IMG/VR virus record: IMGVR_UViG_3300036770_006511
Span: 1 to 64,000 of that record
Source of the DNA: a virus
Reading direction: 5' to 3' (one strand)
Length of the DNA: 64,000 bases
Part shown: piece after piece, positions 821 to 61,508 of the stretch
Layout: each line of letters opens with the position of its first letter
How positions within the stretch are numbered: the first letter of the stretch is position 1
Translations under genes and position numbers: made by a program
Notes under the pieces: generated by a model
Databases searched by the model: none
What the model saw: only the letters and a program-made list of their open reading frames with translations
What the model was told of the DNA's origin: nothing

Positions 821-3800
821 TTAAATATTTTCGAAAGATGCACCAGTTGGTGTAATCAAGAATTCAATATCAATGAATTCGAGAGCCTTCGTTGGTTTGA
901 GGTAAATCTTACCTGTAAGAGTGTTTCTATCCAAATCTTCAGGTGTTGATGCTACCGTAACTCTAAAGTCATACAAACCACGGTCTCTTCTGATTGCGTC
1001 CAAGATTGGGTTTACCGAGTCTAAGAATTGCTGTCTTACAATCTCGTCGTTTTGTTCGAACAACAATCTAACTGCGACCGCGGAAATCAACTTTCTTGCT
1101 TGTAATAACAATCTTCTTACATTCAAACGGTTGAGTGCCGTATCTCGTACTTGAAGAGTTTTGTTACCCCAAATAACAGTACCCACATCAGAGAACGTAG
1201 CAATTGGGTTGATTCTACCTTGATACAAAGTATCCCTGTCTTCTTGAGTTAATTTCAATCTTGCTTTGACTGAGTTTACCAGACCTCTTGTGTAACCCGC
1301 GGATGCGAACCAAGGGAAGGAAATGTTATCGGTTAACGCTAAGTTTCTACAAACCTGACCTGTAGGTGGTATGTAAAGTTGAGTGTTATTTACCGTGTCT
1401 CTTTCCAAAATCCAAGGGTAGTAAGTTGCGGTATAGGATGAATCAATACCTGTTTGGTCAAGATTATCTACCGCCTCTTGAGGGTAAATAATTTCAAACT
1501 GAGAACTACCATCCGCAGTGTACATATTGTAATCAGGACTTGTTACGATATAAACAGAGTCAGACCTTTCATTTTCAATCATACCGATTGCTAATTCACA
1601 AAGGTTTGAGTTATTTACGTAATCAATTCCTGGAGTTGCAAAAACATTAATGTTGGTTGATTCAGGATTTGCAAATGACAACTGTCCCAACAGGTAAGCG
1701 TAGTAATCGGTGTTAGCAAAATCTTGGGTGTTATCACCTACGACAATACGTTTGAATGTGCCGTCACCAGATGCGTTAGGATATCTTTGGGTCGGTGTTG
1801 CGCCTTGAAGGTAACCTGATGCCCCAAGTGCAAATCTGTCTTGGTTAGTTCTGAATTCTCTATAGATGTCCCAACCATCGAATCCTCCTTGGAAAACACA
1901 AGTGAATTTTCTTGAGTAAAGGAAGTAATATGGATTGTCTTGTGAGGTTGGTTCGTCATCGAAACTAGCAACACCACATACGAATGCCGGTGTACCACTA
2001 GTCACTTGTGAATTTGCAATGGTAATAATAGTTGCTCCTGAATCCATATGGAAACCTTTAGTTTGATAATTCCAAGGTTCTGAATTTGTTGCCAAATCCC
2101 AACCAACAACAGGATTTTTCTTTCCTTTGTATTGTAACAAATCACTATCGATTCCGAATTGTGTTGAAATACCTAAGTATGTTCTTCTAACAATGTCACC
2201 TGAAGAGGTTACAATGTTACTTCCACCAGCAGTTGTTCCAAATGGTGGGTCAAATACTGTTTCACCTGGGAAGTAGTATTTGTTCTTTATAATTGGGAAA
2301 GGTGATGGATTTGTAGCACTTTCGTAAACTCTTTCTTCCAAACCATAAAAACCACAAGGAAGTGCATCTATCGGATATTCATCAGAAAGTTCCACCATAA
2401 CGTATGCAGAATTCAATGGATACTCACCATCCGAAGAACCAATCTTTTTAGCAACAAAACTATTTGAACTTGGGTCCATAGTACAGTTAGTGAACTTCTC
2501 GTAAACAACAGGATTTGCATCCGTATCAAAAAAGTCTCTTACTTGAACATCAAAGGTTAAGTTATTGAATGAAATGTTAGCAATAGAAATTTTGACTTGA
2601 GTGTTAGCCGCGTTTCCATCAGAGATTGCAACAAATCTGAATAGTTCATATACAGTGTTACCTCTAAGTTCAGATACAAAGAATGGTGTCTTTGGTGTTT
2701 GATATTGTTCTAAATACCATCCGATTGAAGTAGTCGAACTCTTATCCCTTGCTCCGGGAAGTGCAATCAAATCACATTTGACTCCTCTGACATACCCTTT
2801 ATTGAAACCATAATTAAGCATTCCCAAATAAGATTCCTCAACATAAATTGGAACATCTTGTCTTGGTTTAGAGAAATTAGTGACCCCTAAAACTTTTGTA
2901 ATGTAATTCGAGTTTGTTGAGTTGAATGATGTATCGAATGAGAATGTTTTTCCTTCGAAGGTTACACCACTTAATTGGAATGTTGCGAAAGGACTTTGTG
3001 AAATTCCCGAGTAAGCCCCAGTACATACTAAATTCAAATCTGTCAAACCAGTAACTTGGTATTGAGGTCCATGGTCGTCTGCATCATAGATTGAGATACC
3101 ACGTGAACGTATTGTTGCAAGAATCAGGTTATTCCACTCTGAATATGCAGTTCCCGAATATGTGTACAAGTTACCTGATAAAGTTCCTGTGAAACTTCCT
3201 GTAGCACCAGTTACGAAATTAGTAACACTGTAGTACCAAGAATAACCCGAATAAGAATTAGATGTGGTTACATCGAAAGTCGCGTAGTACCAAGGGTCGT
3301 TATCACCATCAGTCAAGTCTGCAAAATCTAAACTCAAATTATCACAACCAAATTCGTTTGATAAAATACCATAAGATGAGTTCAAAGAGTCATAATCGGT
3401 AGTCGGAATAGAACCATATACGTTTGCTGTGGTTGCTGACACTGTTGTGTTTGCGGAAATGCTAATCATAAAGTTGAATAAATCCGCATTGTAAGTTGAT
3501 GTTGAACCATCAATTAACGAGTAAGAAGTACTCAATGAATTAGATAAAATCGCGGGTAAACCAGATGATAAAGTAAGGGTAGTACCCGACGTGTATCCTG
3601 TGAAAGTTACTGAGAATGGTACGGTTGCAATTGAAGAATTAATACCAACAGTTTGACCGTCAACGTTAGCCACCGCTTGTAATGACCAAGAAGGCCCTGC
3701 ATCATAACCCGATAAACCTAAAATACGGGTTACAAAAAGTTGGTTAGATTGTTGAAGATACGCTTTAGCAATATAAGCGGCTTCATATTTTGGAATTTGT

Positions 3801-4027
3801 GTTCCAATAAATTTTTCAGGTATCGTTCCCCCGAAAAATGTCTGAAACTCATTGAAATTTGTTACGAAGATTGGCTCGAAAGCGGGACCTCTTAAAGTCT
3901 CCCCGACCAAACCTAATGTGGTTACACCCACACTTTGAGCAACAAATGATAAGTCAGTTTCCGATGTATAGACTCCGGGAGAAACAAAAACTTTCTGATT
4001 TGCTTGTGATGTTACTTGAAAAAACAT
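821..4027 (-). CDS. Contractile tail sheath protein
   Basis: N-terminal SPGVYTSETDLS; C-terminal PWFASAGYTRG, RDTLYQGRINPI, WGNKTLQ, LNVRRLL, IYLKPTKALEFIDIEF sheath motifs; large Ser/Thr/Gly-rich insertions. Confidence 0.95.
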   Translation of the reverse strand: MFFQVTSQANQKVFVSPGVYTSETDLSFVAQSVGVTTLGLVGETLRGPAFEPIFVTNFNEFQTFFGGTIPEKFIGTQIPKYEAAYIAKAYLQQSNQLFVTRILGLSGYDAGPSWSLQAVANVDGQTVGINSSIATVPFSVTFTGYTSGTTLTLSSGLPAILSNSLSTSYSLIDGSTSTYNADLFNFMISISANTTVSATTANVYGSIPTTDYDSLNSSYGILSNEFGCDNLSLDFADLTDGDNDPWYYATFDVTTSNSYSGYSWYYSVTNFVTGATGSFTGTLSGNLYTYSGTAYSEWNNLILATIRSRGISIYDADDHGPQYQVTGLTDLNLVCTGAYSGISQSPFATFQLSGVTFEGKTFSFDTSFNSTNSNYITKVLGVTNFSKPRQDVPIYVEESYLGMLNYGFNKGYVRGVKCDLIALPGARDKSSTTSIGWYLEQYQTPKTPFFVSELRGNTVYELFRFVAISDGNAANTQVKISIANISFNNLTFDVQVRDFFDTDANPVVYEKFTNCTMDPSSNSFVAKKIGSSDGEYPLNSAYVMVELSDEYPIDALPCGFYGLEERVYESATNPSPFPIIKNKYYFPGETVFDPPFGTTAGGSNIVTSSGDIVRRTYLGISTQFGIDSDLLQYKGKKNPVVGWDLATNSEPWNYQTKGFHMDSGATIITIANSQVTSGTPAFVCGVASFDDEPTSQDNPYYFLYSRKFTCVFQGGFDGWDIYREFRTNQDRFALGASGYLQGATPTQRYPNASGDGTFKRIVVGDNTQDFANTDYYAYLLGQLSFANPESTNINVFATPGIDYVNNSNLCELAIGMIENERSDSVYIVTSPDYNMYTADGSSQFEIIYPQEAVDNLDQTGIDSSYTATYYPWILERDTVNNTQLYIPPTGQVCRNLALTDNISFPWFASAGYTRGLVNSVKARLKLTQEDRDTLYQGRINPIATFSDVGTVIWGNKTLQVRDTALNRLNVRRLLLQARKLISAVAVRLLFEQNDEIVRQQFLDSVNPILDAIRRDRGLYDFRVTVASTPEDLDRNTLTGKIYLKPTKALEFIDIEFLITPTGASFENI

Positions 4028-5947: not shown

Positions 5948-6343
5948 ATGGAACTTATCTTACCCACCAAGATTACGGTCAAATCAAGTGACATACACGG
6001 ATTGGGTGTGTTCGCTACCAAGAAAATTAAGAAAGGAGAAATCATCGAGGAATGTCCACTGATGGTTTTACCAATTGAACCTGGTCAGACAAGTGGTTTG
6101 TTTATGAATCACCGTTTTGCTTGGCCAAAAGGTATCGGTTGGTACCAACACGTTGTTGCGATGGGTTATGCATCCTACTACAACCATTCCGATACACCAA
6201 ACGCAGATTGGGAAAACAACATGGAAAATGGTACTTTCTATTTTCGTGCCCTGACTGATATTAAACCAGGTGAGGAAATTTTTGTTTGGTACGGTGATGA
6301 AAATTACTGGTCAGACGGGCGTTCGGATATTGAAATTAAATAA
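5948..6343 (+). CDS. SET-domain protein-lysine methyltransferase
   Basis: HGLGVFATKKIKKGEII, YNHSDTPNA, ALTDIKPGEEIFVWYG SET motifs. Confidence 0.9.
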   Translation: MELILPTKITVKSSDIHGLGVFATKKIKKGEIIEECPLMVLPIEPGQTSGLFMNHRFAWPKGIGWYQHVVAMGYASYYNHSDTPNADWENNMENGTFYFRALTDIKPGEEIFVWYGDENYWSDGRSDIEIK

Positions 6344-8137: not shown

Positions 8138-9664
8138 ATGCAACATATACAAGAACAAGTAGAGAAAATAGAAAATCAAATTCTCCACGAAAAGAAAAGA
8201 GAACAAGCCAAAGAAATTTTAAAAGAAGGAAAAAAAATCGGAATTGAAAAACTACCCTACAGTTACTCAGCGGTAAAGAGGTTTATTGATTCCGAGACAA
8301 TGGATGTTCACTATAACAAACACTACAAAGGTTACGTAGATAAACTCAACAACCTATTATCCAAAAGAAAGGGTGACCACGATTTGGAAAGAATCGTAAG
8401 GAACATATCAAGATATCCTAAGGGAGTAAGGGACAATGCTGGTGGTGCTTTCAACCATGCACTTTTTTGGAACATGTTGTCACCCAAACCACAAAGAGTG
8501 GGTAAAAACTTGATGACAAAAATCAAAAAGGACTTCGGAACTTTTGAAAAATTCAAAAAACAATTTGAAGAAGTTGCTAAACAAAGATTCGGCTCAGGTT
8601 GGGTATGGTTAGTGTTAACCAACAAAGGGACACTAAAGATTATGTCTACCCCCAACCAAGATAATCCATTAATGAATGTAATTGAAGGCGGCGGATATCC
8701 ACTTTTAGGCTTAGATTTGTGGGAACATGCATATTACCTCAAATACCGAAACAAAAGAGATGAGTACATCAACAACTTTTGGACTGTTGTCAATTGGGAC
8801 TTTGTGGAAGATATGTTTTTACTTAAGACTGAGACCAAATTATTAGAATCACAAGAAATGGGTAAATTACTTATGGAGACAAAATCAGAGGCGTGCCCAA
8901 GAAACGAAGTGGAAATCTATCGGGAGTTGTTTAACACAAACACCCGAGCAAGAACCCAATACAAAAACACCATCAACGACATTCTCAAGAGATTGTTTCG
9001 TGACAAATACCACAACAAAAGAGAAAATGGTGAAATACCTGGGGTATATGATTTAGAAAAACCAGGTCGCAGTGTCATCAACTACTTGAACACAAACTAT
9101 TCGGTTTTTTGTATTATGGTCCGTGACCTCAACAGAGTTATCACCAAATCTATGGGTGAAAAACCAATTGTTTTTCAAGGTAAAAGTTACGATGACCAAG
9201 TTCAAGAGATGAAGAGAATGTGTAATTACATCGAGCAATTCAGTAATAGAATTTTCGACCCCAATTCACAAACCTTTCATTCCATAATGAATACTTTGAA
9301 AGAAAAAGATAATATTGGGACTCGTAGAGAACTTACGGCAAAGAACCGAATCATGGAGAGCCTACCGAATTTCAAAGTCTCAGTAACCGCAGGAGCGGGA
9401 AAAACCAAAGACGCGGTACAAAAAATCGACATGGAGGTTATCACCGAAAACGGTAAACGTACTGCACAGGTTAAAGGTTACGACGAAATCTTGGAACAAG
9501 ATGGTCGTTTAATTATGACCAAAACGGGTGAGGTTGCAAAATACAATGTTGATTGGATGGTCTTTGTAAAAGGGAGTAAGGTCGTTGTTTTTGAAAACAA
9601 ATGTGAAATCGAAAAGGGAAACTACGTTTTTGACAAAAAGAGTCTGATATACGATTTGAGATAA
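8138..9664 (+). CDS. sod: Fe/Mn superoxide dismutase fused to a ~270-aa C-terminal domain of unknown function
   Basis: LPYSY, HYNKHYKGY, GGAFNHALFW, FGSGWVWL, NQD, DLWEHAYY with all four metal ligands; the long C-terminal extension is not part of SOD. Confidence 0.9.
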   Translation: MQHIQEQVEKIENQILHEKKREQAKEILKEGKKIGIEKLPYSYSAVKRFIDSETMDVHYNKHYKGYVDKLNNLLSKRKGDHDLERIVRNISRYPKGVRDNAGGAFNHALFWNMLSPKPQRVGKNLMTKIKKDFGTFEKFKKQFEEVAKQRFGSGWVWLVLTNKGTLKIMSTPNQDNPLMNVIEGGGYPLLGLDLWEHAYYLKYRNKRDEYINNFWTVVNWDFVEDMFLLKTETKLLESQEMGKLLMETKSEACPRNEVEIYRELFNTNTRARTQYKNTINDILKRLFRDKYHNKRENGEIPGVYDLEKPGRSVINYLNTNYSVFCIMVRDLNRVITKSMGEKPIVFQGKSYDDQVQEMKRMCNYIEQFSNRIFDPNSQTFHSIMNTLKEKDNIGTRRELTAKNRIMESLPNFKVSVTAGAGKTKDAVQKIDMEVITENGKRTAQVKGYDEILEQDGRLIMTKTGEVAKYNVDWMVFVKGSKVVVFENKCEIEKGNYVFDKKSLIYDLR

Positions 9665-16765: not shown

Positions 16766-17639
16766 AAATTCTATTAAATTCTTCTAATATTCGATAAAAA
16801 CTTTTTTTATCTTGATAATATGAAATATCCAAATCTCTTGGTCCAGAGTCAGGACACCACCAAATATCGAATTCTTTAGTTTCAAACAATTCTTTGTGAT
16901 TGACCCTCATTAAGGACATTATGTGTTCTTCGTGTGGTAAACCTCTGTCTTCGGTCATTATTTTTTGTAAATAATCCTCAAAAATGTTTACAACATTATC
17001 CCATTTTGATTTGTGTCCACCAAACATTCCACCAATGACATGACGACTTGGGTCATAATCTGTATACCACTTTCGATGGACTGTCCCTGACCAATAATAA
17101 TTTACATTTTCTTTTGCTAATAACAAAAATTTATCACCAGTATCTTCTATAACGTTTTTCAAAAACTCATTGTTGAACAAAGATGACTCATAATATCTTC
17201 TTTCGGAACCTGTACTGTTCAAATATTTGTTGGGGATTAAACCCGTGTGAGATAAGCCAGCATCTATCCAGTAATAATAATCATATGATTTATCCTCATT
17301 CCACCACCAATGAAACTTAGAATATTGAATCTCAACACATCTGTCACCTCTTTTTGTTTCTTCAACATTTTTCACTTCATTTATTAAATCAAAAAATTTT
17401 GTTTTGGAAATGTCAAAAATTTCGAATTTTAATCTATTTTCATCAATATGGTGGTCAGAATAAAAAAAGTTTTTCAACAATTCGATTTCTCTTTCGGAAG
17501 TGTAACATAAAAAATCTGCGTCGGTAATTTTTAACAAGGAAAGTAAACTCCAACGGTAATGACCACCTCTTGAAGCTCTACCACCGAATTCGGTACCTGA
17601 CAAATCACTATAAATACAGGTTATAAATTTAGTTGACAT
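16758..17639 (-). CDS. HtrL/YibB-like putative glycosyltransferase
   Basis: SKF..YWIDAGL..IGGMFGG..HEE parallels the neighbouring gene. Confidence 0.6.
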   Translation of the reverse strand: MSTKFITCIYSDLSGTEFGGRASRGGHYRWSLLSLLKITDADFLCYTSEREIELLKNFFYSDHHIDENRLKFEIFDISKTKFFDLINEVKNVEETKRGDRCVEIQYSKFHWWWNEDKSYDYYYWIDAGLSHTGLIPNKYLNSTGSERRYYESSLFNNEFLKNVIEDTGDKFLLLAKENVNYYWSGTVHRKWYTDYDPSRHVIGGMFGGHKSKWDNVVNIFEDYLQKIMTEDRGLPHEEHIMSLMRVNHKELFETKEFDIWWCPDSGPRDLDISYYQDKKSFYRILEEFNRIYE

Positions 17640-18372: not shown

Positions 18373-18373
18373 C

Positions 18374-19624
18374 TTACAAATTTCCCGTTAAACGGTCACA
18401 CCATCCTTTTGATTCCGAGTGTGGCCAAACAACCCAATATGTTGGTTTTTGTGTGGTTTGAAATTCTCTCCAAATTTTACAATACTTATCGGGGTCATTC
18501 ATCATACGATTGATTTCTGCCTTATCCGCATCTTTTCTGAACAAAGTACTATCATCTGACCCGTGGAAAGCAACCACCCAAAAGTCATAATCTTTTTCGG
18601 GAACACTTGCATAACCAACATCAATACAATGTTTAAACACTTGTGCAAAATCTTTTTTCCAATCCTCTTCAGTTTCATAATTGTAAGGATTCGGTGGGTA
18701 GTGTTTATCTAACGTATATTGTTGAACTGCACGATTTTCAAAAAGAATTCCTGCATATTTTTCGTAATCTCTAAGAGTTCTTTCAGTACCGAAACCAAAT
18801 GGACCATCATGACCCTCTTGAGTTTCACCATCCATCCCAAAAAGTTTTCTATTAGTAAGGTGTGATTTGTTATTTTTATCCACCCATTGTTTGTCATCGT
18901 CCCATTGTTTGGTTCTACCCTTTCGTGTATATTCGTGCCAAATCAAAACTTTATGGGGGTGAAATAAATCGTAACCCCAAGTATATGCTCTCGCAGCGAT
19001 TGAGATTTCTTCACCGTGGAAATAGTATTCAGGATTATGTTGAACTTCAGTAGAAAACTGACCAACAGTGAATGCGTAGTGAGCTGAATAAAATCTTGCG
19101 GGAATAGGCTCTTTCAGTTCCTTCCAACCAGGAATAGTTTCAGGTAGAAAGAAAACAGCTCCTTCAGGAATAAAACGGTCAAATACCATTCTCCACGGTT
19201 CCTGAACTCTACCAGCGGGGTCGTTATCAGGGTCAAAAGATGAAACATAACCTGTCAGCAAAGGTTTTTTATGCCCCTTCTTCTGAAGTTGTTTAATCAT
19301 TTTAATCATCTCGTCATCCCAATTCGGTGCAAAACGCATGTGAGAATCGATTTGCATTGTGTATTCCTCATCCTCGTACAATTGTTGAGTCAAATTACGA
19401 GCCCAACAAACTCCCTTCGAATCTTGATAAGGTATGTCTAAAATTCTAAATCTTTTATCTTTAACAAATTCCGTCAAATCGTCAAACTTGTCTTCGGGGT
19501 GAAATTGACGAGCAATACCAAATCGTAAATTCTTAGGTCGTTTGGCATTGACAATCATATCTCTTAACGTGTGAATTAATTGCGGGTCTCTATACGAGGC
19601 AATCTGAACAAATATTTTCATCAA
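18374..19624 (-). CDS. GT60-like polypeptide / Skp1-hydroxyproline alpha-GlcNAc transferase
   Basis: IFVQIASYRD, GVCWAR, QIDSHMRF..WD, YFHGEE, TWGYDLFHP..WHEY match Gnt1/OGNT (GT60) motifs. Confidence 0.8.
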   Translation of the reverse strand: MMKIFVQIASYRDPQLIHTLRDMIVNAKRPKNLRFGIARQFHPEDKFDDLTEFVKDKRFRILDIPYQDSKGVCWARNLTQQLYEDEEYTMQIDSHMRFAPNWDDEMIKMIKQLQKKGHKKPLLTGYVSSFDPDNDPAGRVQEPWRMVFDRFIPEGAVFFLPETIPGWKELKEPIPARFYSAHYAFTVGQFSTEVQHNPEYYFHGEEISIAARAYTWGYDLFHPHKVLIWHEYTRKGRTKQWDDDKQWVDKNNKSHLTNRKLFGMDGETQEGHDGPFGFGTERTLRDYEKYAGILFENRAVQQYTLDKHYPPNPYNYETEEDWKKDFAQVFKHCIDVGYASVPEKDYDFWVVAFHGSDDSTLFRKDADKAEINRMMNDPDKYCKIWREFQTTQKPTYWVVWPHSESKGWCDRLTGNL

Positions 19625-19683
19625 ATAATAATTTTAAACAAAAAATAAACACAACACAGATAAACTGAATAATCTTTTATAAC

Positions 19684-19709
19684 AAAAAACCCCTCACTAA
19701 GGAGGGGTC
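19684..19709 (-). terminator. Rho-independent terminator after the Thr-Pro gene block
   Basis: Minus strand ACCCCTC-cttagt-GAGGGGT followed by TTTTT. Confidence 0.8.
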
Positions 19710-19713
19710 TAAT

Positions 19714-31135: not shown

Positions 31136-32350
31136 ATGCCGCAAATTAACGTATTGGTTGTACCATCTGACAGATTTGGTGTTGGAAAATTTCGTTCCAT
31201 CGAACCACACATCTTTTTACAAAATAATTTTTCAGAAGACTTTTTTGTCGAAATTGACTTAAATCCCCCACTCGAGGATTTGGAGTTTTATAAAAAATTC
31301 CAAATTGTTGTCTATCACCGTAGTATTACAAATGACTTTGATAGGTCTTATGAGTTAATTGAAAAACTTAAGGGTTTGGGTATTGTCACTGTCTGTGACA
31401 TGGATGACTATTGGAATCCAACAAAAGACCACCCAATTTATGATGTAATTATGTACAATAAAATCAACGAAAAGATTGTACGTAGTATTAAGCAGTCAGA
31501 TTGGGTAACCACTACAACTTCGTTGTTTGCGGATGAAATTAGAAAATACAATAAAAATGTTTTTGTCTTACCCAACGCAATCAACCCTGATGAACCTCAG
31601 TTCAAAGAAAAAACTATTGAATCGGACAAACTTCGTGTAGGTTGGTTAGGGGGTTCATCTCACTTAAGTGACCTTCAACTTTTGGATTCTTCATTCGCAA
31701 AACTTTCACAGAACTACAAAGACTTACAATTTGTTCTATGTGGATTTGACACCAGAGGTACTATTACAGAAATTAATGGACAAACTGGAGAACATAAAAA
31801 ACGACCCATTAAACCCGAAGAGACTGTTTGGGCTCGTTATGAGGAAATTTTTACCCAAAACTACAAGTACGTAAGTCCTGAATTCGAAAAAGTTTTGAAA
31901 AAGTATACCCAAGACGAACACACAGAGTTTGGAAATGAGTCTTACCGTCGAGTTTGGACACTACCTGTTACCTCTTATGCAAAAAACTATGCAAAATTTG
32001 ATGTATCTTTGGCACCAATCAAAAATCATATGTTCAACAGAATGAAGTCCCAACTAAAAGTTATTGAGGCAGGATTCTACAAAAAGGCTCTTATTGCAAC
32101 AAATTTGGGTCCCTACACTTTAGATTTGAAACACTGTTTGAAGAATGGTGAATTCACTGACGGTAACGCATTATTGGTTGACGAAAATCGAAATCATGGT
32201 GATTGGGCTAAGTTTATAATCAAACTTCAAAAAAATCCTAACCTTGTTAAAGATATGGGTGAAAGGTTATATGAAACTGTTAGTAAAAAATACGATTTGA
32301 ATATCGTGACACGAGACCGAGCTGATTTTTACAAAAGTTTAATTAAATAA
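31136..32350 (+). CDS. GT-B (GT4-like) glycosyltransferase
   Basis: DMDDYW, VLPNAI, VGWLGGSSH, DVSLAP..FNRMKSQLKVIEAG. Confidence 0.85.
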   Translation: MPQINVLVVPSDRFGVGKFRSIEPHIFLQNNFSEDFFVEIDLNPPLEDLEFYKKFQIVVYHRSITNDFDRSYELIEKLKGLGIVTVCDMDDYWNPTKDHPIYDVIMYNKINEKIVRSIKQSDWVTTTTSLFADEIRKYNKNVFVLPNAINPDEPQFKEKTIESDKLRVGWLGGSSHLSDLQLLDSSFAKLSQNYKDLQFVLCGFDTRGTITEINGQTGEHKKRPIKPEETVWARYEEIFTQNYKYVSPEFEKVLKKYTQDEHTEFGNESYRRVWTLPVTSYAKNYAKFDVSLAPIKNHMFNRMKSQLKVIEAGFYKKALIATNLGPYTLDLKHCLKNGEFTDGNALLVDENRNHGDWAKFIIKLQKNPNLVKDMGERLYETVSKKYDLNIVTRDRADFYKSLIK

Positions 32351-33070: not shown

Positions 33071-33714
33071 ACGACCACCAAGATAACCTAAATTACCCTG
33101 AGGACGATAATGATTTGAACAATCTCATTGATGCTGAACTACGAAAACTCATCGATGAAATTGAACAACTTACCTTTAACCCTGACTCAACCCAAGAAAA
33201 CTTATCTGAGGATGAAAAAAAGTTAGAAGAAGGATTAAATGAGTTAGATAAATACATGAATAAGGAACTCCTAATTGTTGAACTCCCATTTATGAAGTTA
33301 CACTCTGATGCGGTTTTACCAAAATACGCCTATGAATTAGATTCGGGATTTGATTTGTATAGTGTCGAAGAAGTTAGTCTTCAACCATTTGCTCGAGTAC
33401 TTGTCCCAACTGGTTTGGCATTCCAAGTACCCGATGGGACAGAAATTCAAGTTAGAAGTAAAAGTGGTTTGGCAATCAACCAAGGACTGATGGTTCTGAA
33501 TAGTCCAGGAACTGTTGATTGTGGGTATTTGGGTGAAATTAAAGTTATTGTTATGAATATGAACAACTATGCCGTCACAATACAAAAAGGTCAAAAAGTG
33601 GGTCAAGCGGTACTCTGCCCTGTCTATAATGGAAAAAAAGTTAGGCTAACTGAGAAAGATAACTTAGGAATTTCAGACAGAGGAATAAATGGATTTGGAA
33701 GTACAGGAATATAA
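33067..33714 (+). CDS. dut: Trimeric dUTPase with acidic N-terminal extension
   Basis: SGFDL, RSKSG, GTVDCGYLGEI, GQAV, RGINGFGSTG. Confidence 0.92.
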   Translation: MNDHQDNLNYPEDDNDLNNLIDAELRKLIDEIEQLTFNPDSTQENLSEDEKKLEEGLNELDKYMNKELLIVELPFMKLHSDAVLPKYAYELDSGFDLYSVEEVSLQPFARVLVPTGLAFQVPDGTEIQVRSKSGLAINQGLMVLNSPGTVDCGYLGEIKVIVMNMNNYAVTIQKGQKVGQAVLCPVYNGKKVRLTEKDNLGISDRGINGFGSTGI

Positions 33715-35348
33715 TGATTACAGTAGGTTATTCAACTCGCTCACATAAACCCGAACTAATAGAGTATTTTAAAAAATCGTCGGGTAACCCAAATCACGTT
33801 GAAGTAATAGAAAAAATTAATGACGGAAGTAAATCTCTGTCAGAAGTTTATAATGAAATTATTTCAGAATCTAAAAGTGATATTGTAATACTGTGTCACG
33901 ATGATATCTATTTTGACACCAACGCATGGTATTCAAAAGTTCTAAGGAACTTTGAGAAAACTGAATTTGGTATTATTGGTGTCGCGGGAACACCCAAATT
34001 ACCTGAAAGTGGTAGGTGGTGGGAAGACCGTTCAAAAATGTTTGGTATTGTAAATCACGAAAGTGAAGGAAGAAAATGGACCTCAACATACTCCTCGAAT
34101 TTAGGAAATGAAATCAAAGAAGTTGTAATTGTTGATGGTGTTTTTATTTCTATTCATAAGAAAAGAATCAAAAGTCAGTTTCTCGAAGAGTTTGAAGGAT
34201 TTCACTTTTACGACTTACCGTTCTGTTTGGAAAATTATTTGAATGGTGTTAAGGTCGGTGTATGCACAAATATTCGGATAACCCACAAATCAATTGGAGA
34301 AACCAACCAACAGTGGGAAGATAATAGAACTCTTTTCGTAAAAAAATACGAAAATAGTTTACCTGTTAAAGTTCCGTTTGACCCCAAGCATAAAATGAAA
34401 GTCCTTATTTCTTCTATGTTTTTTAGAACTTTTACTGGGTCTGAGGTTTATGTCTATGAGTTGGCAAAATCACTTAAAAAACAAAATTGTGAGGTAACAG
34501 TTCTTTCACAAATTGGTGGACCTCTTACTGATTTGGCAAAAAAAGAGGGAATCAAATGTCTGTCTTTCGAAGAAGCCCCTGGTTTTAAAATGGGTGATGG
34601 TAAATGGTTAGTAATGGGTCCTGACGGTAATCCACAACCTTCAAACCCAACAACACTTTATAAAACAAGTGAGGTCGACTTCGATATAATTCATATTCAA
34701 CACAAACCCGTGATGGAAAGAATTATAAATTTGTATCCCAATATAGATAAAATTGCTTCCATTCACTCTGAGGTAATTGAGTTGGAAGACCCAATTATTC
34801 ACGATTCAATTAAACATTACATAGCAATCAGACCTGAAATCAAAGAACATATTGTAAGTAAATTTGGTATTGATGAAAATAAGGTTTCAGTAATTTATAA
34901 TCCAATCGACAAAAACAAGTTCCCTACATTACCTAAAAAAGAAAATGGTTATATTCTATTCGTTGGTACTATCGACTACCTGAGGGAGTTTGCAATTAAA
35001 GATGCTGGAGAATATGCCATATCATTAGGAAAAGAACTTTGGTTGGTCGGAGAGGACAAATCCATTTATTTAAAAAGTTATTTGAATAACCCATCCATTA
35101 AACATTTTCCATCAACTTGGAATCTAAAACCTTTTATCGAAGGTGCATACGAAACTGCAGGAATTCAATTAGGTCGAACCACAATCGAAAGTTGGATGAG
35201 TGGTAAAGACAGTTGGATTTACAAAGTCAACGAAAATGGTGATATTATTTCAAAAGAAAAAACTTCATCTCCTGAGGATATCGAGAAATTCTACTCAGAA
35301 AATGTTGCAAAACAAATTAAAGAAGAGTATTTAAAAATATTGTCGTGA
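33714..35348 (+). CDS. Two-domain glycosyltransferase (GT-A plus GT-B)
   Basis: LCHDDI, GIIGVAG, VDGVF, FHFYD; then FTGSEVYVYELAK, VIYNPID. Confidence 0.8.
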   Translation: MITVGYSTRSHKPELIEYFKKSSGNPNHVEVIEKINDGSKSLSEVYNEIISESKSDIVILCHDDIYFDTNAWYSKVLRNFEKTEFGIIGVAGTPKLPESGRWWEDRSKMFGIVNHESEGRKWTSTYSSNLGNEIKEVVIVDGVFISIHKKRIKSQFLEEFEGFHFYDLPFCLENYLNGVKVGVCTNIRITHKSIGETNQQWEDNRTLFVKKYENSLPVKVPFDPKHKMKVLISSMFFRTFTGSEVYVYELAKSLKKQNCEVTVLSQIGGPLTDLAKKEGIKCLSFEEAPGFKMGDGKWLVMGPDGNPQPSNPTTLYKTSEVDFDIIHIQHKPVMERIINLYPNIDKIASIHSEVIELEDPIIHDSIKHYIAIRPEIKEHIVSKFGIDENKVSVIYNPIDKNKFPTLPKKENGYILFVGTIDYLREFAIKDAGEYAISLGKELWLVGEDKSIYLKSYLNNPSIKHFPSTWNLKPFIEGAYETAGIQLGRTTIESWMSGKDSWIYKVNENGDIISKEKTSSPEDIEKFYSENVAKQIKEEYLKILS

Positions 35349-52229: not shown

Positions 52230-52825
52230 AAATCGCAATTGAAGTAAATGGAGTCCTTCGAGACACTGTAAAAAAAATTGAACAGGTCTATGAGAAATTC
52301 TATGTTGAAAATATCTTGAATGAAAAGAGAGATTTCGAATATGGAGTAATTTCTCCAATTACTTCTTTGAAGATTCAAGACCACTTGAAATTCAAAGATG
52401 AGGATGAGGTTTATGATTTTCTCTACACAGAACATTGTATGGAAATATTTGGACACGCACCCTCGGTGGAATACAGTAGTTTTATAGACTTGAATGATTT
52501 TTATGTTGACATGAGAGATAATCACGAGATAATCATTATTTCTGATGAAATTGGTAAATCAAAACCTGCAACATTATTTTTCCTTTCAAAATTTGGTTGT
52601 CAAGTTGAAAAAATTATTTTCTATAACCAATTTACCTTGGAAAATGTTTGGGAAGAATTTGACCTTTTACTTACGGCAAATCCTGACTTATTATTAAATC
52701 ATCCTACAGATAAAAAAATTATTAAGTATAATACAAATTATAATACGGAAATAGTTAATTTACCAAATATTGATAACATCAAACAACTCAAAAATTTAAT
52801 AGAAAATGATACCAATTTGGAATGA
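52226..52825 (+). CDS. 5'(3')-deoxyribonucleotidase-like HAD protein with degenerate motif I
   Basis: KIAIEVNGVLRD, EIFGHA, YNTNYN. Confidence 0.55.
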   Translation: MKIAIEVNGVLRDTVKKIEQVYEKFYVENILNEKRDFEYGVISPITSLKIQDHLKFKDEDEVYDFLYTEHCMEIFGHAPSVEYSSFIDLNDFYVDMRDNHEIIIISDEIGKSKPATLFFLSKFGCQVEKIIFYNQFTLENVWEEFDLLLTANPDLLLNHPTDKKIIKYNTNYNTEIVNLPNIDNIKQLKNLIENDTNLE

Positions 52826-53084
52826 AAATTACTTCATCGACATGGACAAAATTGAGGATTATATCGATTTGTCAGCAATAATTAATGATGAACTTAGTGG
52901 AAGCACTAACGAACACAAAATCAACGTTGTCAAGTATGAGATGGTTAAGTTAATGCTTGAGGTCATAATGAGTGAACAGAATGAAGTCGATGAAAAACTT
53001 GGATTACAGAATTCAAATTTGTCACTTTCTTTCAGATTGGCATTTAACACACTGTTGAATAAAAAAATAATAACACATTACTAA
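52806..53084 (+). CDS. Hypothetical protein
   Basis: 92-aa ORF in the operon. Confidence 0.6.
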   Translation: MIPIWNENYFIDMDKIEDYIDLSAIINDELSGSTNEHKINVVKYEMVKLMLEVIMSEQNEVDEKLGLQNSNLSLSFRLAFNTLLNKKIITHY

Positions 53085-53087
53085 AAA

Positions 53088-54143
53088 ATGGACCAAGAAC
53101 AAATTGAAAAAGTAAAAAATTCAATTAGTAATCTACGAGAGAAAAAATCTAAATTATATTTTTTCATTCACGATACTAAAGGTAACGCCAAGGCCTCTAT
53201 AAAATACATTTATGATTTGGCATTAACTCTAAAGAGAAACGGATTCAATTCCATTATCCTACACGAAAAATCTGACTACACAGGTGTTACTTCTTGGCTT
53301 GGAGAACATTACATGACAGAAATCCCTCACTTGGTTATCGAGGGACAAAATGTAGAAATTGCTGCGGAAGATTTCCTTATCATTCCAGAAATATTTGGTT
53401 TCATGATGGACCAAGTCAAAAACCTACCCTGTGGTAAAGTTGTTTTGACTCAGTCGTATGCATATATGTTGGAAACACTTCAACCAGGTCAAACATGGAA
53501 TCAATACGGATTCTTTAAAACCATTACTACTTCAGAAACACAAAAAAATCAAATTTCCAAAGTAATGAGAAATCAAAGTTTTGATATCATCGAACCTTAT
53601 ATTTCCGACGTTTTCAAAAAAAGAGAACTACCACCCCTTCCAATCGTTGGAATTCACTCAAGAGAACAAGAAGATACTATCAATTTGATTAAGACATTCT
53701 ACTTGAGATTCCCCCAATACCGGTGGTTCACATTCCGTGATTTGAGAGGTCTATCTCAAGAGGAATTTGCAAACGCGATTTCGGAGTGTTTCGTTACTGT
53801 TTGGATGGACAGACAAAGTGGTTATGGAACATTCCCATTGGAATCGATGAAAGTTGGTAATCCTGTTATCGGACTGACACCTAACTTGGTACCCGAGTGG
53901 ATGAATGAAACCAATGGAATTTGGATTAAAGATGAACTTATACTTCCTGATGTCATTGCGGATTGGATACAGAATTGGTTGGAGGATAACATCTCTGAAG
54001 AAATGTACCAAAACATTCAAGAAACGGTGGACAAACTTCCCACCAAAGAACAATTCGAAAATAAAACCATAGAAATTTTCACAAGTTACTTAGAAACGAG
54101 AGCTGAATCTATGGAGGAACAAATTTCAAAATTTAGCGAATAA
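53088..54143 (+). CDS. GT-B-like putative glycosyltransferase
   Basis: DFLIIPE, GLSQEEFA, SGYGTFPLESM..GNPVIG. Confidence 0.7.
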   Translation: MDQEQIEKVKNSISNLREKKSKLYFFIHDTKGNAKASIKYIYDLALTLKRNGFNSIILHEKSDYTGVTSWLGEHYMTEIPHLVIEGQNVEIAAEDFLIIPEIFGFMMDQVKNLPCGKVVLTQSYAYMLETLQPGQTWNQYGFFKTITTSETQKNQISKVMRNQSFDIIEPYISDVFKKRELPPLPIVGIHSREQEDTINLIKTFYLRFPQYRWFTFRDLRGLSQEEFANAISECFVTVWMDRQSGYGTFPLESMKVGNPVIGLTPNLVPEWMNETNGIWIKDELILPDVIADWIQNWLEDNISEEMYQNIQETVDKLPTKEQFENKTIEIFTSYLETRAESMEEQISKFSE

Positions 54144-54145
54144 TT

Positions 54146-54952
54146 ATGAACAACGTATTAGACATTACCATTGTACTTCCAATCAAATCGGCGGTAACCC
54201 GTGATTTTGAAGATTACTTTGAAAAGGCAATTCAATCAATCAAAAACCAAAAAGTTGGTGTAAAAGAACTTTTGATTGTTGCAACTCAAGAGGAAAAACT
54301 CAACTCACACTTGGATTCTTTTGATTTTGGTGAAATTAATATAAGAAAGTTAATTTGGGATAAAGAACCCAATTTTGCTTCTCAAGTAAATTATGGAATC
54401 GAGAACGCAGACTCAAAGTGGGTTTCGATTTTTGAATTTGATGATGAATACGCAAACATTTGGTTTGATAATGTAAGAAAATACATGGAGTATTACCCAA
54501 TGGTTCAAGCGTTCCTTCCTGTTGTAGTTGATACGGATGAAAAAGGAACCTTTGCGGGATTTACCAATGAAGCGGTATTTGCAGCAAACTTCGCACAAGA
54601 AGTTGGTTATCTCACTAATGACATCCTACAAGATTATCAAAACTTCCAAACCGCAGGAATGGTTCTGAGAAAAGATGTTGTAGAAGAATTTGGAGGTTTC
54701 AAATCATCTATCAAGCTAACATTTGTTTATGAATTTTTGTTGAGACTCACTTATAACTCCACATCGATTATGACAATCCCAAGATTGGGTTACAAACACA
54801 CCAACATGAGAGAAGGTTCTCTGTTTTGGAATTACAAGTTTGGTCAAGAAAAAATGGTAGATGAGGAAGTCAAATTTTGGGTACAATCAGCAAAGAAAGA
54901 ATATTTCTTCAAAGAAGATAGAACCATAAAGTTCCAAACAACAAATGATTAA
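54146..54952 (+). CDS. GT2-like glycosyltransferase
   Basis: ITIVLPI, QVNYGI, FEFDDEY, EFGGFK, EFLLRL. Confidence 0.75.
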   Translation: MNNVLDITIVLPIKSAVTRDFEDYFEKAIQSIKNQKVGVKELLIVATQEEKLNSHLDSFDFGEINIRKLIWDKEPNFASQVNYGIENADSKWVSIFEFDDEYANIWFDNVRKYMEYYPMVQAFLPVVVDTDEKGTFAGFTNEAVFAANFAQEVGYLTNDILQDYQNFQTAGMVLRKDVVEEFGGFKSSIKLTFVYEFLLRLTYNSTSIMTIPRLGYKHTNMREGSLFWNYKFGQEKMVDEEVKFWVQSAKKEYFFKEDRTIKFQTTND

Positions 54953-56115: not shown

Positions 56116-58272
56116 ATGCCAATATTCAGTAACCAATCAGTAGACGTTGCGGGGGGATTCGAAGAGATTTCCGCACGAATTTCTGCATTACAGGCATACA
56201 ACGAAGCAAGACTAACTCAAAGTGAAAGTGAAAAAAACAGGGGTGACAGTTTAACTCGTTCACTCCAAATTCTCGCAGGTCAAAAATCCTCAGTAGAGGC
56301 CAACCAAAGTAGGGACAAACGAAACCAAGAAACTTCATTTGATAAGATGATATCTCTTATCAATCAAAGTAGTATTGGTGGGACTGGATTTACAAACACA
56401 AACGCGTTAATACGTAAAAATCTATTGGAGCTCGTCTTTAAAATGAAAGACGAAATTAAAACAATTATCACTGAAGAAGCATTTAGAGTTCTAAATTGTT
56501 CTCAACAAGAAACTTATCAAGGTCTCTCTACAACACAACTTCAAAATATTCCCTCCCTATCCTTATTACCTCAACAGGACGGAATTTATGTTAAGGTAAG
56601 TGATATAGATTTCAACAAATCACTAGTAATCAAACCCCAAACTCAAATCGGTAAGTTGTATTATGAGACGACAGGAATTACTTCTTTATCCGTTTATAAC
56701 AACTATGCGGGAAGGCAACCTTTTCCTATGAATTTTGAGTTGAATCAAAGGATTCAACAACAAAATTCTACATTTAGAGATGAGTATTCAACTTATTATA
56801 ACGGACGTAGCCGTCAAGGAATCTTTGACATCGAATATACAACCCAAAATGGTGTTGGTGCCTCAGGAGACTACTTCAGAGTTTTCTTACTGGACAGGGA
56901 AGGGACACCACCACCAACCACGGGTGGAACTATAAGTACATTAAAGTATTCTGCAAACACCATCGCGGATGCACTTGGAGATTATTATCAGTCAATCGAA
57001 GTATACAACTCCAAGGTGTTTTTGGGTAATTTACTTAACCTTATTTCGGGTACATTATCCGGCTCAGTTTCAATAACTCAAATAGAGGCTCAAAATAGAT
57101 TTATAACAATCCTTAATCGTATCATAGGTCGATGTGAGCCTGGTCAAAGCGAAATCGATGTCTCGGGTGTTGCCAAATTATCAGAGTTAGATATCGATGA
57201 CAATGAATTTTTCACCTTTACCGAAACTGAACTCAATGATATAAATGTTGAGTCAAACAACCAAAAACAAGGAGTTGTAGAATATGTAGATTGTGACAAC
57301 GTTAAGTTACCCGTAAATAATGAAATTCTAATTCAACAATCCCAAAACTTGGCGGACAACATTGATAATCTTACCGTTGAACAACAATTAGAAGAAATTG
57401 AAAGAATACTCGATTCGATTCCTCAAGCATGGTCTCAACAAGGAATTGGAATTGGTTTTGACACACAAAACCCCTTTAATCAAAGTATTTTCAAAAAAAT
57501 CTTGTTGGCTCTATTTGCGTCTATTTTTACCCCCAAGGTTTTACTTCCGATTTTCACGTTCAAGGAATATCTTAACAATCAAATCGTTGGTTTTGCGAAC
57601 ACACTCATTACTTCTGGTAATACTCTTATTTCTTCGGCAAACACCCTCATCAACTCTGCAAGTACTCTAAACAATATCATTAACTCTCAAATCAACACGG
57701 GAGTAGATTTTATCAGAGAATATAAAAAGTTTGTTTTCAGAGTTGTGGGTAGAATTATGAACAGATTTTTGGAGTTGTTGTTTAATATGTTGAAGAAAAA
57801 TCTTCTCAGACTTCTTCGTGAAATTTTAAGGGACATTGCACGAACAAGTAAAAGTGCCAAACTCAAAGCCATAAACGCCATATTAGATTATGCACAACCC
57901 TTAGTACAAGGGTTTCTGAATTACAGAGAGTGTAAGTCACTTATTCAACAAATACAAAGAATAATTCAGTTACTAAGAGGTACACCACGACTACCACCAA
58001 GTCCATTTCCTAATCCAATTTTGGTACTTTCAGAGTTTTTACCTGGTGTAAGTCCCGAAAGGGGGGTGCTGAACATTGTAGAATATATGCAAGCCTACGG
58101 ATTACGTACGGGTACGTTACCCGACGGGTCACCCAATAGAATTGTAAGATTAGTAACTGCAATCGAAAAGGGGGGTTATGACGAGTTTGTTCAAAATGGT
58201 AAAGTCGAAGGTACGGCATTTGTTCCACCTTTAACTGGTGGATTAATAAAAGTATTTGCAAAAGGTAGATAA
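56116..58272 (+). CDS. Large putative structural (baseplate-region) protein
   Basis: 718 aa, upstream of spike gene; 7-aa repeat NTLITSG/NTLISSA/NTLINSA. Confidence 0.5.
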   Translation: MPIFSNQSVDVAGGFEEISARISALQAYNEARLTQSESEKNRGDSLTRSLQILAGQKSSVEANQSRDKRNQETSFDKMISLINQSSIGGTGFTNTNALIRKNLLELVFKMKDEIKTIITEEAFRVLNCSQQETYQGLSTTQLQNIPSLSLLPQQDGIYVKVSDIDFNKSLVIKPQTQIGKLYYETTGITSLSVYNNYAGRQPFPMNFELNQRIQQQNSTFRDEYSTYYNGRSRQGIFDIEYTTQNGVGASGDYFRVFLLDREGTPPPTTGGTISTLKYSANTIADALGDYYQSIEVYNSKVFLGNLLNLISGTLSGSVSITQIEAQNRFITILNRIIGRCEPGQSEIDVSGVAKLSELDIDDNEFFTFTETELNDINVESNNQKQGVVEYVDCDNVKLPVNNEILIQQSQNLADNIDNLTVEQQLEEIERILDSIPQAWSQQGIGIGFDTQNPFNQSIFKKILLALFASIFTPKVLLPIFTFKEYLNNQIVGFANTLITSGNTLISSANTLINSASTLNNIINSQINTGVDFIREYKKFVFRVVGRIMNRFLELLFNMLKKNLLRLLREILRDIARTSKSAKLKAINAILDYAQPLVQGFLNYRECKSLIQQIQRIIQLLRGTPRLPPSPFPNPILVLSEFLPGVSPERGVLNIVEYMQAYGLRTGTLPDGSPNRIVRLVTAIEKGGYDEFVQNGKVEGTAFVPPLTGGLIKVFAKGR

Positions 58273-58273
58273 G

Positions 58274-58483
58274 ATGACTCAAGAAGAATTTAAAGTATTA
58301 ATGGAGGTTGCTAAAGATGTGAAAAATGTCCCCAATAATCGTTTGGAACAAACTATGGACCAATTAGCCACGGAATTCGAAACAACAAAACAAAATATTT
58401 TGGGTCTGAGTTTTTACTTAGACAAAATCGAAGAATTGTATAATAAAATATTGAAAGAATACCAAGAGAGAAATGGCGAGTAG
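58274..58483 (+). CDS. Small coiled-coil protein
   Basis: ATG at 58274 in frame with the track ORF. Confidence 0.6.
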   Translation: MTQEEFKVLMEVAKDVKNVPNNRLEQTMDQLATEFETTKQNILGLSFYLDKIEELYNKILKEYQERNGE

Positions 58484-59972: not shown

Positions 59973-59980
59973 TATTTATA
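59973..59980 (+). promoter_or_regulatory. TATTTATA putative late promoter
   Basis: 13 nt before ATG 59994; another copy at 61463-61470 precedes 61505. Confidence 0.6.
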
Positions 59981-59993
59981 AAGAAAAAGTATA

Positions 59994-61508
59994 ATGTCAA
60001 TTTATCGGTCGTATTTTAGTAGGAACAATACTTTATTATCAAATCTCTATACAAATACTGCAAGAAACCCTGTAGTACAACTTAACTTTGGTAGTTCTGA
60101 TTTAGTAGTACCCAACTTTGGGTTCACCCGTTTTATTTTTGACTTGGACCTTGATGGTCTCAGAGAAATGATTGCCGAAAAGGTTATCTCCACAGGTTGT
60201 ACCACAGGGATGACTCATACTCTTATGATGACCAATACTTCATCGTTTGATGATGAACTTCTTAACACCAATATGAGTGATGGAAGAAAAAGAGCAACAT
60301 CATTTGATTTAATACTTTTTAGAATACCAAAGTTTTCAGGAGATACAGGAACACCACAAATTTGGGATGAGGGTGTTGGATACGATTATAACGACTTCGG
60401 TACAACACAAAATGGAATTTCAGGACAACAGTCATCCATAGAACAATTAAATAACAAGAGTTTTTCATTAAGACCATCAAACTGGTACCAAACAACAACC
60501 GTTACAAATTGGTCAGAGCCGGGAATTTACAACAACAAAAATATCCTCACAGGTTTAACAGGTCTTAACTATTCATCCCTCACCATCGTAGACGAACAAC
60601 ACTTCGAACTTGGTAACGAGGACATCCAATTTGATATGACCAATGAAATAAATGGTATATTAGATGGAACTATAACAGGTGTTACTGGATGGGGGGTTGC
60701 ATATAAACCCGATATTGAAAACATCACAGGACTTACAGAATCATACTCAGTAGGGTTTTTTGGAAAATACACTCAGACATTTTACCAACCATATCTCCTT
60801 ACAGATTACAACGACTTAATACAAGACGACAGAAACCTGTTCCTTAAAAACCAAACCAATAAGTTATATCTCTATGTGTATCAGAACGGAGATTTTGCTA
60901 ACTTGGATAACTTACCTGGTGTAAACATTGAAGACCAAAATGGTGAGGTCGTAACGGGGGGGAGTGGATTGACAACCTGTCAAGTTACAAAAGGTGTGTA
61001 TGAAGTTACGGTTCCCAATATTTTTGTGAATCAACCAGTACCTTGTTTATTCTATGATGTATGGACAGGACTTACCATCAATGGACAGTCTCTACCCAAT
61101 GTTACCAATCAATTTGTTTTACAACAATACAGTGCGGGTATACAAATAGGTAGTCAATCTAAAGAGCCGAGTAAATACGGATACAGTTTCTACGGTATTC
61201 TACAAAATGAAAAGATTTTGAATACTGAAATCCGTAAGATTGGTGTTGTTGCCAAGAAACAATGGACATCTCAACATCAATTAGAAAACATCGACATATA
61301 CTATCGTGTGTATGTAAGGGAAGGTACCACTGAAGTTCAAGTACAGAACTGGACACCAGTAAACCGAACTCCGAACGAGTATTACTTCATTTTTGATATG
61401 AGAGACAAAATTCCTAATGAGTACTTTGTCGATATCAGAGTGAATACAAGTGGTGAGAAAGATATTTATAAAGACACAATTCAATTCCAAATTGTTAACA
61501 AGAAATGA
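59994..61508 (+). CDS. Putative structural (baseplate/tail) protein
   Basis: Beta-rich, follows spike gene, late motif. Confidence 0.55.
   Translation: MSIYRSYFSRNNTLLSNLYTNTARNPVVQLNFGSSDLVVPNFGFTRFIFDLDLDGLREMIAEKVISTGCTTGMTHTLMMTNTSSFDDELLNTNMSDGRKRATSFDLILFRIPKFSGDTGTPQIWDEGVGYDYNDFGTTQNGISGQQSSIEQLNNKSFSLRPSNWYQTTTVTNWSEPGIYNNKNILTGLTGLNYSSLTIVDEQHFELGNEDIQFDMTNEINGILDGTITGVTGWGVAYKPDIENITGLTESYSVGFFGKYTQTFYQPYLLTDYNDLIQDDRNLFLKNQTNKLYLYVYQNGDFANLDNLPGVNIEDQNGEVVTGGSGLTTCQVTKGVYEVTVPNIFVNQPVPCLFYDVWTGLTINGQSLPNVTNQFVLQQYSAGIQIGSQSKEPSKYGYSFYGILQNEKILNTEIRKIGVVAKKQWTSQHQLENIDIYYRVYVREGTTEVQVQNWTPVNRTPNEYYFIFDMRDKIPNEYFVDIRVNTSGEKDIYKDTIQFQIVNKK

Follow-up and report, generated by a model that had tools for sequence, protein, structure and literature searches.

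Why do several unrelated virion-type proteins of an uncultured phage share one short motif, and does the phage itself encode an enzyme that reads it? We addressed this question in a 64,000-nucleotide stretch of viral DNA (IMG/VR record IMGVR_UViG_3300036770_006511; hereafter, the window), which makes up the initial 64 kb of a viral contig of 77,089 bp, labelled G000. The motif is [ST]-G-x-T, together with its variant [ST]-A-x-T—i.e., [ST]-[GA]-x-T in its full form. According to the initial annotation of the window, unrelated structural proteins converged on this pattern as a modification sequon read by one of the phage glycosyltransferases (GTs). Our analysis partly supports that proposal: sequon reading is the leading explanation of the motif excess, and we consider it an even call whether a soluble, GT4-like enzyme encoded by the phage, termed GT31136, reads [ST]-[GA]-x-T as its acceptor motif and O-glycosylates folded virion proteins there. 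The motif-bearing proteins of the window (lengths in amino acids, aa) are as follows.

59994..61508, + strand: 504-aa virion-type protein, with eight [ST]G.T sites at residues 67, 71, 115, 186, 228, 245, 324 and 358.
26582..28501, - strand: F620, the Cys-rich N-terminal domain (residues 1-640) of a 1504-aa protein (23987-28501), with ten sites.
23987..26581, - strand: the rest of the 1504-aa protein, with Thr-Pro linkers and a C-terminal Laminin_G_3 domain (Pfam, E 1.5e-22), and six sites.
56116..58272, + strand: 718-aa protein, with four sites.
821..4027, - strand: tail sheath, 1068 aa, matching phrog_23 (E 4.6e-55) over residues 746-1066.
19714..23284, - strand: three Thr-Pro-linker proteins (362, 607 and 188 aa), with eight sites that are mostly paralogous copies, the motif opening Cys modules.
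23300..23971, - strand: 223-aa protein, with two sites versus 0.5 expected, which alone is not significant.

Motif counts were compared with 2000 composition-preserving shuffles per protein, carried out over the whole protein and inside 40- or 20-residue windows. A clear excess was found in the 504-aa protein (8 sites versus 0.7-0.8 expected, p<0.0005) and in the 1504-aa protein (16 versus 3.8-5.2, p<0.0005), where 10 of the 16 sites fall in residues 62-370. The 718-aa protein (4 versus 0.5-0.7, p=0.002-0.006) and the sheath (6 versus 1.6-2.1, p=0.006-0.02) were enriched as well, and the 718-aa family contained 122 sites versus 23.6 expected in 63 homologues sharing ~41% identity. The counts given in the initial annotation—8 in the 504-aa, 16 in the 1504-aa (10 in its first ~380 aa), 5 in the 607-aa and 4 in the 718-aa protein—were all reproduced exactly, and its call for shuffling was borne out in the four proteins just described, though not clearly in the 607-aa and 362-aa proteins. 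Its description of the sheath was likewise accurate: all six sites map to variable insertions (residues 143-663), and the conserved core (746-1066) is free of them. The conserved C-terminal domains of the sheath are present, as seen in the phrog_23 match, with Pfam matches to Phage_sheath_1 and Phage_sheath_1C just below the cut-offs. PolB (933 aa), the SNF2 helicase (584 aa) and the superoxide dismutase (SOD)-domain protein (508 aa) carry no site, again as first noted. Taken over the ten proteins listed as structural, 46 sites were counted versus 15.3 expected, with 6 versus 6.3 in all other open reading frames (ORFs). To allow for the post-hoc choice of the motif, all 8000 a-b-x-c patterns were scanned; SG.T ranked first (25 versus 8.8) behind the Thr-Pro linker patterns, and TG.T was likewise high (27 versus 12.9). 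Codon use at the motif sites matches the background, except for an avoidance of NNC-GG, and therefore no DNA word underlies the motif—a DNA-level cause was rejected on this ground. The 52 sites are preceded by T, F, S, I, V or L, with no excess of Asp. The motif sites of the proteins of the window are non-periodic, and no repeats were seen there, though no test for repeats was made.

The specificity of the pattern emerged from the family of the 504-aa protein. An AlphaFold2 model (predicted local distance difference test score, pLDDT, of 87.8) features an N-terminal jelly-roll domain resembling a carbohydrate-binding module (CBM), followed by two immunoglobulin (Ig)/fibronectin type III (FN3)-like domains, and the best VIA structural match was a CBM (chain 8wab_B, Z 16). 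No fibre could be recognized, at odds with the initial view of this protein as one. In this one modelled protein, DSSP assigned all eight sites to loops or strand ends. Homologues at ≥70% identity number in the thousands, and the family has 537 cluster representatives; we analyzed 101 full-length distant homologues (102 sequences with the query). Across the 101, [ST]G.T occurs 205 times versus 33 expected, i.e., an observed/expected ratio (O/E) of 6.2, and [ST]A.T occurs 42 times versus 13.8 (O/E 3.05). Single-residue and shifted controls (NG.T, DG.T, [ST]G.S, G[ST].T, [ST].GT and others) ranged between 0.6 and 1.65, and N.[ST] showed no excess (O/E 0.96). Together with the absence of an Asp excess at position -1, the latter value agrees with the initial distinction of the motif from N-x-S/T and from the Bacteroidota pattern D-[ST]-[AILVMT].

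In the tree of the 504-aa family, a well-supported clade of 37 rows has zero or one site in 35 of them and four in the other two, while the remaining rows have 2-9 sites with sporadic zeros (P0127, P0139, P0233 and P0201, inside the rich clade); a viral-contig scan with the zero-motif homologue P0127 returned only loci 42% identical. The family O/E reaches 7.7 in the motif-rich clade (64 distant homologues) and ~2 in the poor one. Position by position, the rich clade is enriched in S (9.1x) and T (6.6x) at position 1, in G (7.7x) and A (4.1x) at position 2, and in T (7.7x) and C (5.2x) at position 4, with all other residues near 1; neither N nor D is enriched at position 1 or 2, nor is any shifted pattern. 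Since Ala is tolerated at position 2 and Asn/Asp are not, the profile points to residue size as the constraint, and not to the needs of a backbone turn. The sites turn over: they are spread over 90 alignment columns, mostly in variable loops, the best-kept site is present in no more than 23 of the 102 sequences, and the sites of the query itself are kept in 1-7. By comparison, 26 virion proteins of phage T4 hold 18 sites versus 13.8 expected, with no related pattern prominent. The motif excess is not general to phage structural proteins, and we know of no protein-directed virion glycosylation in T4.

We also compared G000 with the genomes of its relatives G001-G005, G008 and G015, among them the complete genomes G008 (without GT31136) and G015 (with it). 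Proteome-wide, the O/E of [ST]G.T was 2.40 in G000, 2.31 in G002, 2.43 in G003, 2.62 in G005 and 2.26 in G015, versus 1.24 in G004 and 1.20 in G008, both GT-less. An Asp-Gly-Tyr tag, by contrast, showed no enrichment in any of the eight genomes (O/E 0.7-1.6). Among 54 ortholog quartets, the excess resides in three unrelated families, with sites in G002, G003, G004 and G005 numbering 3, 4, 0 and 0 (504-aa family), 10, 15, 0 and 4 (F620) and 7, 8, 0 and 4 (sheath), respectively. In these orthologues the sites lie in variable insertions, and their columns differ. The F620 sites are spread over 76 alignment columns. The baseline of G008 had been predicted beforehand, and this genome indeed has no enriched protein (one site in its sheath, and zero in its homologues of F620 and of the 504-aa protein); several strongly enriched proteins were found in G015.

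A BLAST search of the sugar genes of the window against G001-G005 singled out one ORF (31136-32350), present in G000, G002, G003 and G005 and absent from G004. This gene and the other candidate transferases are listed below.

31136..32350, + strand: GT31136, a 404-aa, GT-B, GT4-like glycosyltransferase (phrog_7162 glycosyltransferase, E 4e-43), the candidate motif reader.
33714..35348, + strand: two-domain GT (Glyco_tranf_2_5 plus Glyco_transf_4, Pfam), a second, weaker candidate reader for the 504-aa family.
18374..19624, - strand: GT60-type GlcNAc transferase beside the Thr-Pro proteins (PF11397, E 1.7e-68).
53088-54952, + strand: GT1-like plus GT2-like gene pair.

The co-variation of the motif with GT31136 was traced through F620, the most informative of the candidate substrate families. 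Of 79 diverse F620 loci, the 12 that have zero sites all lack a GT31136 gene within 10 kb, and ~43 of the 65 site-bearing ones have it there. A profile search of whole records detected it in 0 of 10 zero-site records (one a complete genome) and in 7 of 15 site-bearing records lacking a nearby copy. In total, all 10 GT-less rows have zero F620 sites and 44 of the 45 GT-bearing rows have at least two (naive Fisher p 4e-10), and later loci, L503 included, fit the same pattern. The 45 GT-bearing relatives have 349 F620 sites versus 32.7 expected; the GT-less clade has 3 versus 3.8. What replaces the motif where the gene is missing can be read from homologous positions: SGNT, SGST or TGNT at a first site becomes NGNN, YGNN or DGNN in the GT-less clade; TGYT at a second becomes NGYT, DGYT or KGYT; and TGFT or SGKT at a third becomes DGYT, DGFT or NGLD. 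The O/E values follow suit, with 11.8 for [ST]G.T, 1.0 for [ND]G.T and 6.7 for [ST]A.T in the nearest GT-bearing relatives, versus 0.78, 4.6 and 0.9 in the GT-less clade. This site contrast and the ratios thus indicate a polar turn scaffold in both groups, with a hydroxyl residue only where GT31136 is present. The GC content (33.5% and 39.1% in the GT-less genomes, 27.7-36.4% in the GT-bearing ones) does not explain the difference. Only four gene families are common to four GT-bearing jumbo genomes and missing in both GT-less ones—GT31136, an AAA ATPase, RlaP and a CCA/poly(A)-type nucleotidyltransferase. In most genomes, 3-15 kb separate the genes for GT31136 and F620. The idea that enrichment tracks a specific GT gene is thus upheld in its direction, though by two independent contrasts only, as considered below.

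The protein encoded by this gene is predicted to adopt a GT-B fold of two Rossmann-like domains (AlphaFold2 model, pLDDT 92.8), and the top Foldseek matches were the GT4 enzymes GlgM, MshA, BshA, PimB' and PglA (E 4e-12 to 1e-10, TM ~0.6). At the sequence level, the Pfam family Glycos_transf_1 scored 18.6 bits versus a cut-off of 26.4, below the curated score, Glyco_transf_4 was matched only in two orthologues (best E 2.5e-5), and a profile search of PDB sequences gave nothing at E≤1. On account of these sub-threshold Pfam scores and the lack of a PDB sequence match, GT31136 is best regarded as a divergent relative, classed by fold rather than by sequence family. It is highly conserved, with >7000 homologues, many of them ~70% identical, and no close homologue was found in cultured phages. 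In the 735-kb uncultured phage LR756501, which has a GT homologue 35% identical, the 41-kb neighbourhood of that gene contains 0 sites versus 2.7 expected and no large structural protein; since no F620 or sheath homologue was detected in the whole record, it does not bear on the link between GT31136 and the motif. As a separate observation, the GT31136 homologue at G013:C1:134865-137230 (the record of locus L372) is part of a 780-aa open frame in which ~1.1 kb separates its two halves (profile positions 17-185 and 171-408); this gap suggests an insertion, e.g., an intein or an additional domain.

The enrichment and its specificity, the turnover of sites, the co-variation with the GT31136 gene and the GT-B fold of its product are results of the analysis; that GT31136 acts on protein at all, which residue it modifies and which sugar it transfers are inferred. 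The enzyme would act on virion proteins that are already folded, inside the infected cell, and its targets would be short polar turns, located in variable surface loops and insertions of four proteins (the sheath, F620, 504-aa and 718-aa proteins). The acceptor is likely the hydroxyl residue at position 1, whereas position 2 (a small residue) and position 4 (Thr) would serve for recognition.

Several results weigh against this proposal. Measured against whole-protein composition, neither the 607-aa nor the 362-aa protein has an excess (5 sites versus 3.9 and 2 versus 1.9, respectively), because both are Thr-rich owing to their Thr-Pro linkers; a weak excess appears in the 607-aa protein alone once the linkers are handled locally. 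The sites that open Cys modules, correctly spotted in the initial annotation, are paralogous copies (five or six), and they therefore count as one origin rather than as independent cases. Many sites of the relatives sit in periodic repeats—C[ST]GLTS and IPSGVTSIG of the leucine-rich repeat (LRR) type, SGSTxxxx octads, and TGGT or HAEG fibre repeats—such that a structural contribution is real. In the tree, the rows without the gene fall into a single clade of 13, nested within GT-bearing relatives, and one additional fragment; accordingly, there are only two independent contrasts, both concordant, and a sign test is unable to reach significance. Most GT-less records are incomplete contigs, and eight motif-bearing records, all of them fragments, have no detected GT31136. 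In G005 and G015, the gene is present and the 504-aa homologue nevertheless has zero sites, so that the GT31136 gene is not sufficient and the strongest case of the window is left without an assigned reader of its own. Finally, GT31136 adjoins an exonuclease and a dUTPase gene, and it could hence modify DNA or a small molecule instead. Convergence of unrelated virion proteins on a GT-read sequon, as originally envisaged, is consequently favoured by the shuffles, the loop positions, the T4 result and the tracking of GT31136, and is weakened by the non-independent sites, the structural repeats and a GT loss confined to one clade.

The rival that fares best, which we consider unlikely, holds that the motif is purely structural, i.e., a polar ST-turn plus Gly followed by a beta-branched Thr that starts a strand, with no modification involved and with the joint loss of motif and GT reflecting shared ancestry. 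The edge-of-loop or edge-of-strand positions of all eight sites in the modelled 504-aa protein agree with it, as do the N/D-G-x-T residues kept at the same positions by GT-less relatives (which reveal that the turn scaffold exists there), the periodic repeats and the small number of contrasts. A turn preference, however, should accept Asn/Asp at position 1 and Asn/Asp/Gly at position 2, and yet in GT-bearing phages Asn/Asp are not enriched whereas Ala at position 2 is. Moreover, the same folds in other clades and the virion proteins of T4 lack the excess, the sites shift between columns instead of being conserved, and the switch from S/T to N/D is systematic over three sites and whole proteomes, independently of GC content.

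Quite improbable in our view, though worth weighing, is that the motif is a tag for some other reader—another phage GT, a different modification (e.g., phosphorylation), or an assembly or host-binding partner. The genome has ample candidates, with >10 GT or sugar-tailoring genes on contig G000, and the motif-free 504-aa homologues of G005 and G015 would fit such a reader, particularly the GT at 33714-35348. The distribution of this gene, found in G000-G003 but in neither G004 nor G005, agrees with that of the motif in the 504-aa family over six genomes. Against this candidate, its best-match homologues also adjoin zero-motif copies of the 504-aa protein. The GT1-like/GT2-like pair (53088, 54146) was rejected as reader, being found in rich and zero loci alike; it is syntenic beside a block encoding 247-, 121-, 718-, 499- and 504-aa proteins in nearly all relatives, motif-free ones included. 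The GT60, GT25 and HtrL genes were rejected as well, since a BLAST search returned no homologue in G001-G005 and they are thus absent from the enriched G002, G003 and G005; a PF11397 family search found nothing in the five relatives nor in control genomes, a result that counts weakly. As GT60 is missing in relatives that keep the enrichment, it is not the reader of [ST]G.T and represents a separate candidate system. In this connection, the GT60 GlcNAc transferase, GT25 and HtrL-like genes (15095-22682, - strand) directly adjoin the proteins with long T-P-T-x linkers, an arrangement that looks like a distinct, mucin-type system. Among the four families lost together with the motif, GT31136 is the sole transferase for which protein is a conceivable acceptor.

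That the motif is chance, or a post-hoc pattern born of S/T/G-rich composition, is barely credible and already contradicted: the motif was picked by eye, the 607-aa and 362-aa proteins stay at composition level and the Cys-module sites are mutual copies, but local shuffles gave p<0.0005 in two proteins, SG.T is the top non-linker pattern among 8000, the O/E of distant homologues far exceeds that of the controls, and G008 and G015 turned out as predicted.

How would O-glycosylation of folded virion proteins by GT31136 compare with known systems? We know of no tailed phages other than mycobacteriophages for which virion glycosylation is established, and of no four-residue sequon for the mycobacteriophage case. 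A search of the literature for a described [ST]-G-x-T sequon found none. The closest parallel is the virion O-glycosylation of Che8-type mycobacteriophages (Freeman et al. 2023, Cell Host Microbe 31:1216, as cited in PMC11256854), in which, going by that citing account, phage-encoded soluble glycosyltransferases decorate the virion proteins of the phage itself in the cytoplasm and a glycan coat is formed, much as proposed here from sequence. Capsid and tail-tube proteins of actinobacterial siphophages are reported as modified in that case, whereas the putative targets considered here—insertions of the sheath, a tail-type protein rich in Cys, and proteins of Ig/CBM type—belong to a large, T4-like phage that is uncultured. 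The present system also differs in having a defined motif and in being proposed from sequence alone.

Among bacterial enzymes, GtfA/GtfB is a cytoplasmic, GT4-type O-GlcNAc transferase of GT-B fold that acts on Ser/Thr of serine-rich-repeat adhesins, with small residues beside the acceptor (S-A-S-type repeats). GtfA carries a DUF1975 insertion, pairs with GtfB and targets long low-complexity repeats. As far as tested, GT31136 lacks both the insertion and such a partner, and the sites discussed here are isolated turns in folded domains. The bacterial autotransporter heptosyltransferases (BAHT: Aah, TibC) modify Ser in short inter-strand loops of a folded beta-helix (AIDA-I, TibA), in repeated Ser-Gly-type turns. 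They form an iron-containing, dodecameric family that uses ADP-heptose as donor and follows no [ST]-G-x-T rule, such that the likeness lies in the way of working and not in the enzyme family. The N-x-S/T and D-[ST]-[AILVMT] sequons are similar in being short and linear, with a hydroxyl residue at a fixed distance from the acceptor and a polar turn, but the corresponding systems act outside the cytoplasm and neither pattern is enriched here. BspA-type LRRs (Pfam LRR_5) and octapeptide beta-helix fibre repeats, which present SGLT/SGVT or SGST in each repeat and supply many sites in the jumbo relatives, are periodic structural repeats, unlike the non-periodic sites of the window. We observed BspA-type LRRs (C[ST]GLTS, IPSGVTSIG) in relatives L101, L114 and L124, and a 1145-aa protein (G005:C1:203464-206901, L191) with 34 SG[ST]T copies every 8 residues, an octapeptide repeat resembling a beta-helix fibre.

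The wider gene content places the window in context. Contig G000 probably covers only part of the genome of a T4-like phage of large or jumbo size, considering that near-identical gene blocks occur on contigs of 140-390 kb (contigs of close relatives span 60-390 kb) and that an 85-kb relative, 93% identical, was rated only 23% complete. A search for cultured relatives of the phage found none. The contig encodes replication and accessory functions (PolB, the SNF2 helicase, the SOD-domain protein, PhoH and dUTPase) alongside virion components (a T4-type major head protein at 63713-65506, portal, terminase, prohead protease and the 1068-aa sheath). Three further features of the window are as follows.

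5948-6343, + strand: SET-domain protein, 131 aa (PF00856, E 4e-18), with a protein lysine methyltransferase fold.
8138-9664, + strand: Fe/Mn superoxide dismutase-domain protein, 508 aa.
52806-53084, + strand: 92-aa protein with one conserved SGST site.

The SET-domain gene adjoins that of the SNF2 helicase, and its presence is unusual in a phage. In the 508-aa protein, the SOD domains are confined to residues 36-225, and the C-terminal ~280 residues matched no family. The family of the 92-aa protein has 50 sites in 56 homologues; within the compared genomes, homologues were detected solely in the motif-rich G001-G003, although the protein is small and divergent. At the DNA level, CCGG is strongly avoided across the contig (40 versus 103 expected under a second-order Markov model), GCGC is depleted too (9 versus 24), and NNC codons preceding GGN at motif sites number 0 versus 8.5 expected; this combination suggests that a host restriction site is avoided.

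Should the acceptor-motif proposal hold, the four-residue sequon, together with a named enzyme, would make phage glycoproteins predictable from sequence alone, and it could account for at least one of the many glycosyltransferase genes in aquatic large phages, besides providing a compact, soluble, sequon-directed tool for O-glycosylation. The broader picture, which we advance tentatively and rate a little below an even chance, is that an abundant, uncultured lineage of aquatic, T4-like large or jumbo phages sugar-coats its tail and accessory virion proteins at [ST]-[GA]-x-T via a dedicated cytoplasmic GT4-like enzyme, with sites won and lost one loop at a time, as in a viral glycan shield, and with reversion to N/D-G-x-T upon loss of the enzyme. 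In tailed phages, no sequon-directed system of protein glycosylation would have been described before it. That sites in exposed loops turn over further suggests that a glycan coat is under selection, with receptor masking, protease resistance and grazer resistance as examples, and such selection could, if the proposal is true, be readable from metagenomes.

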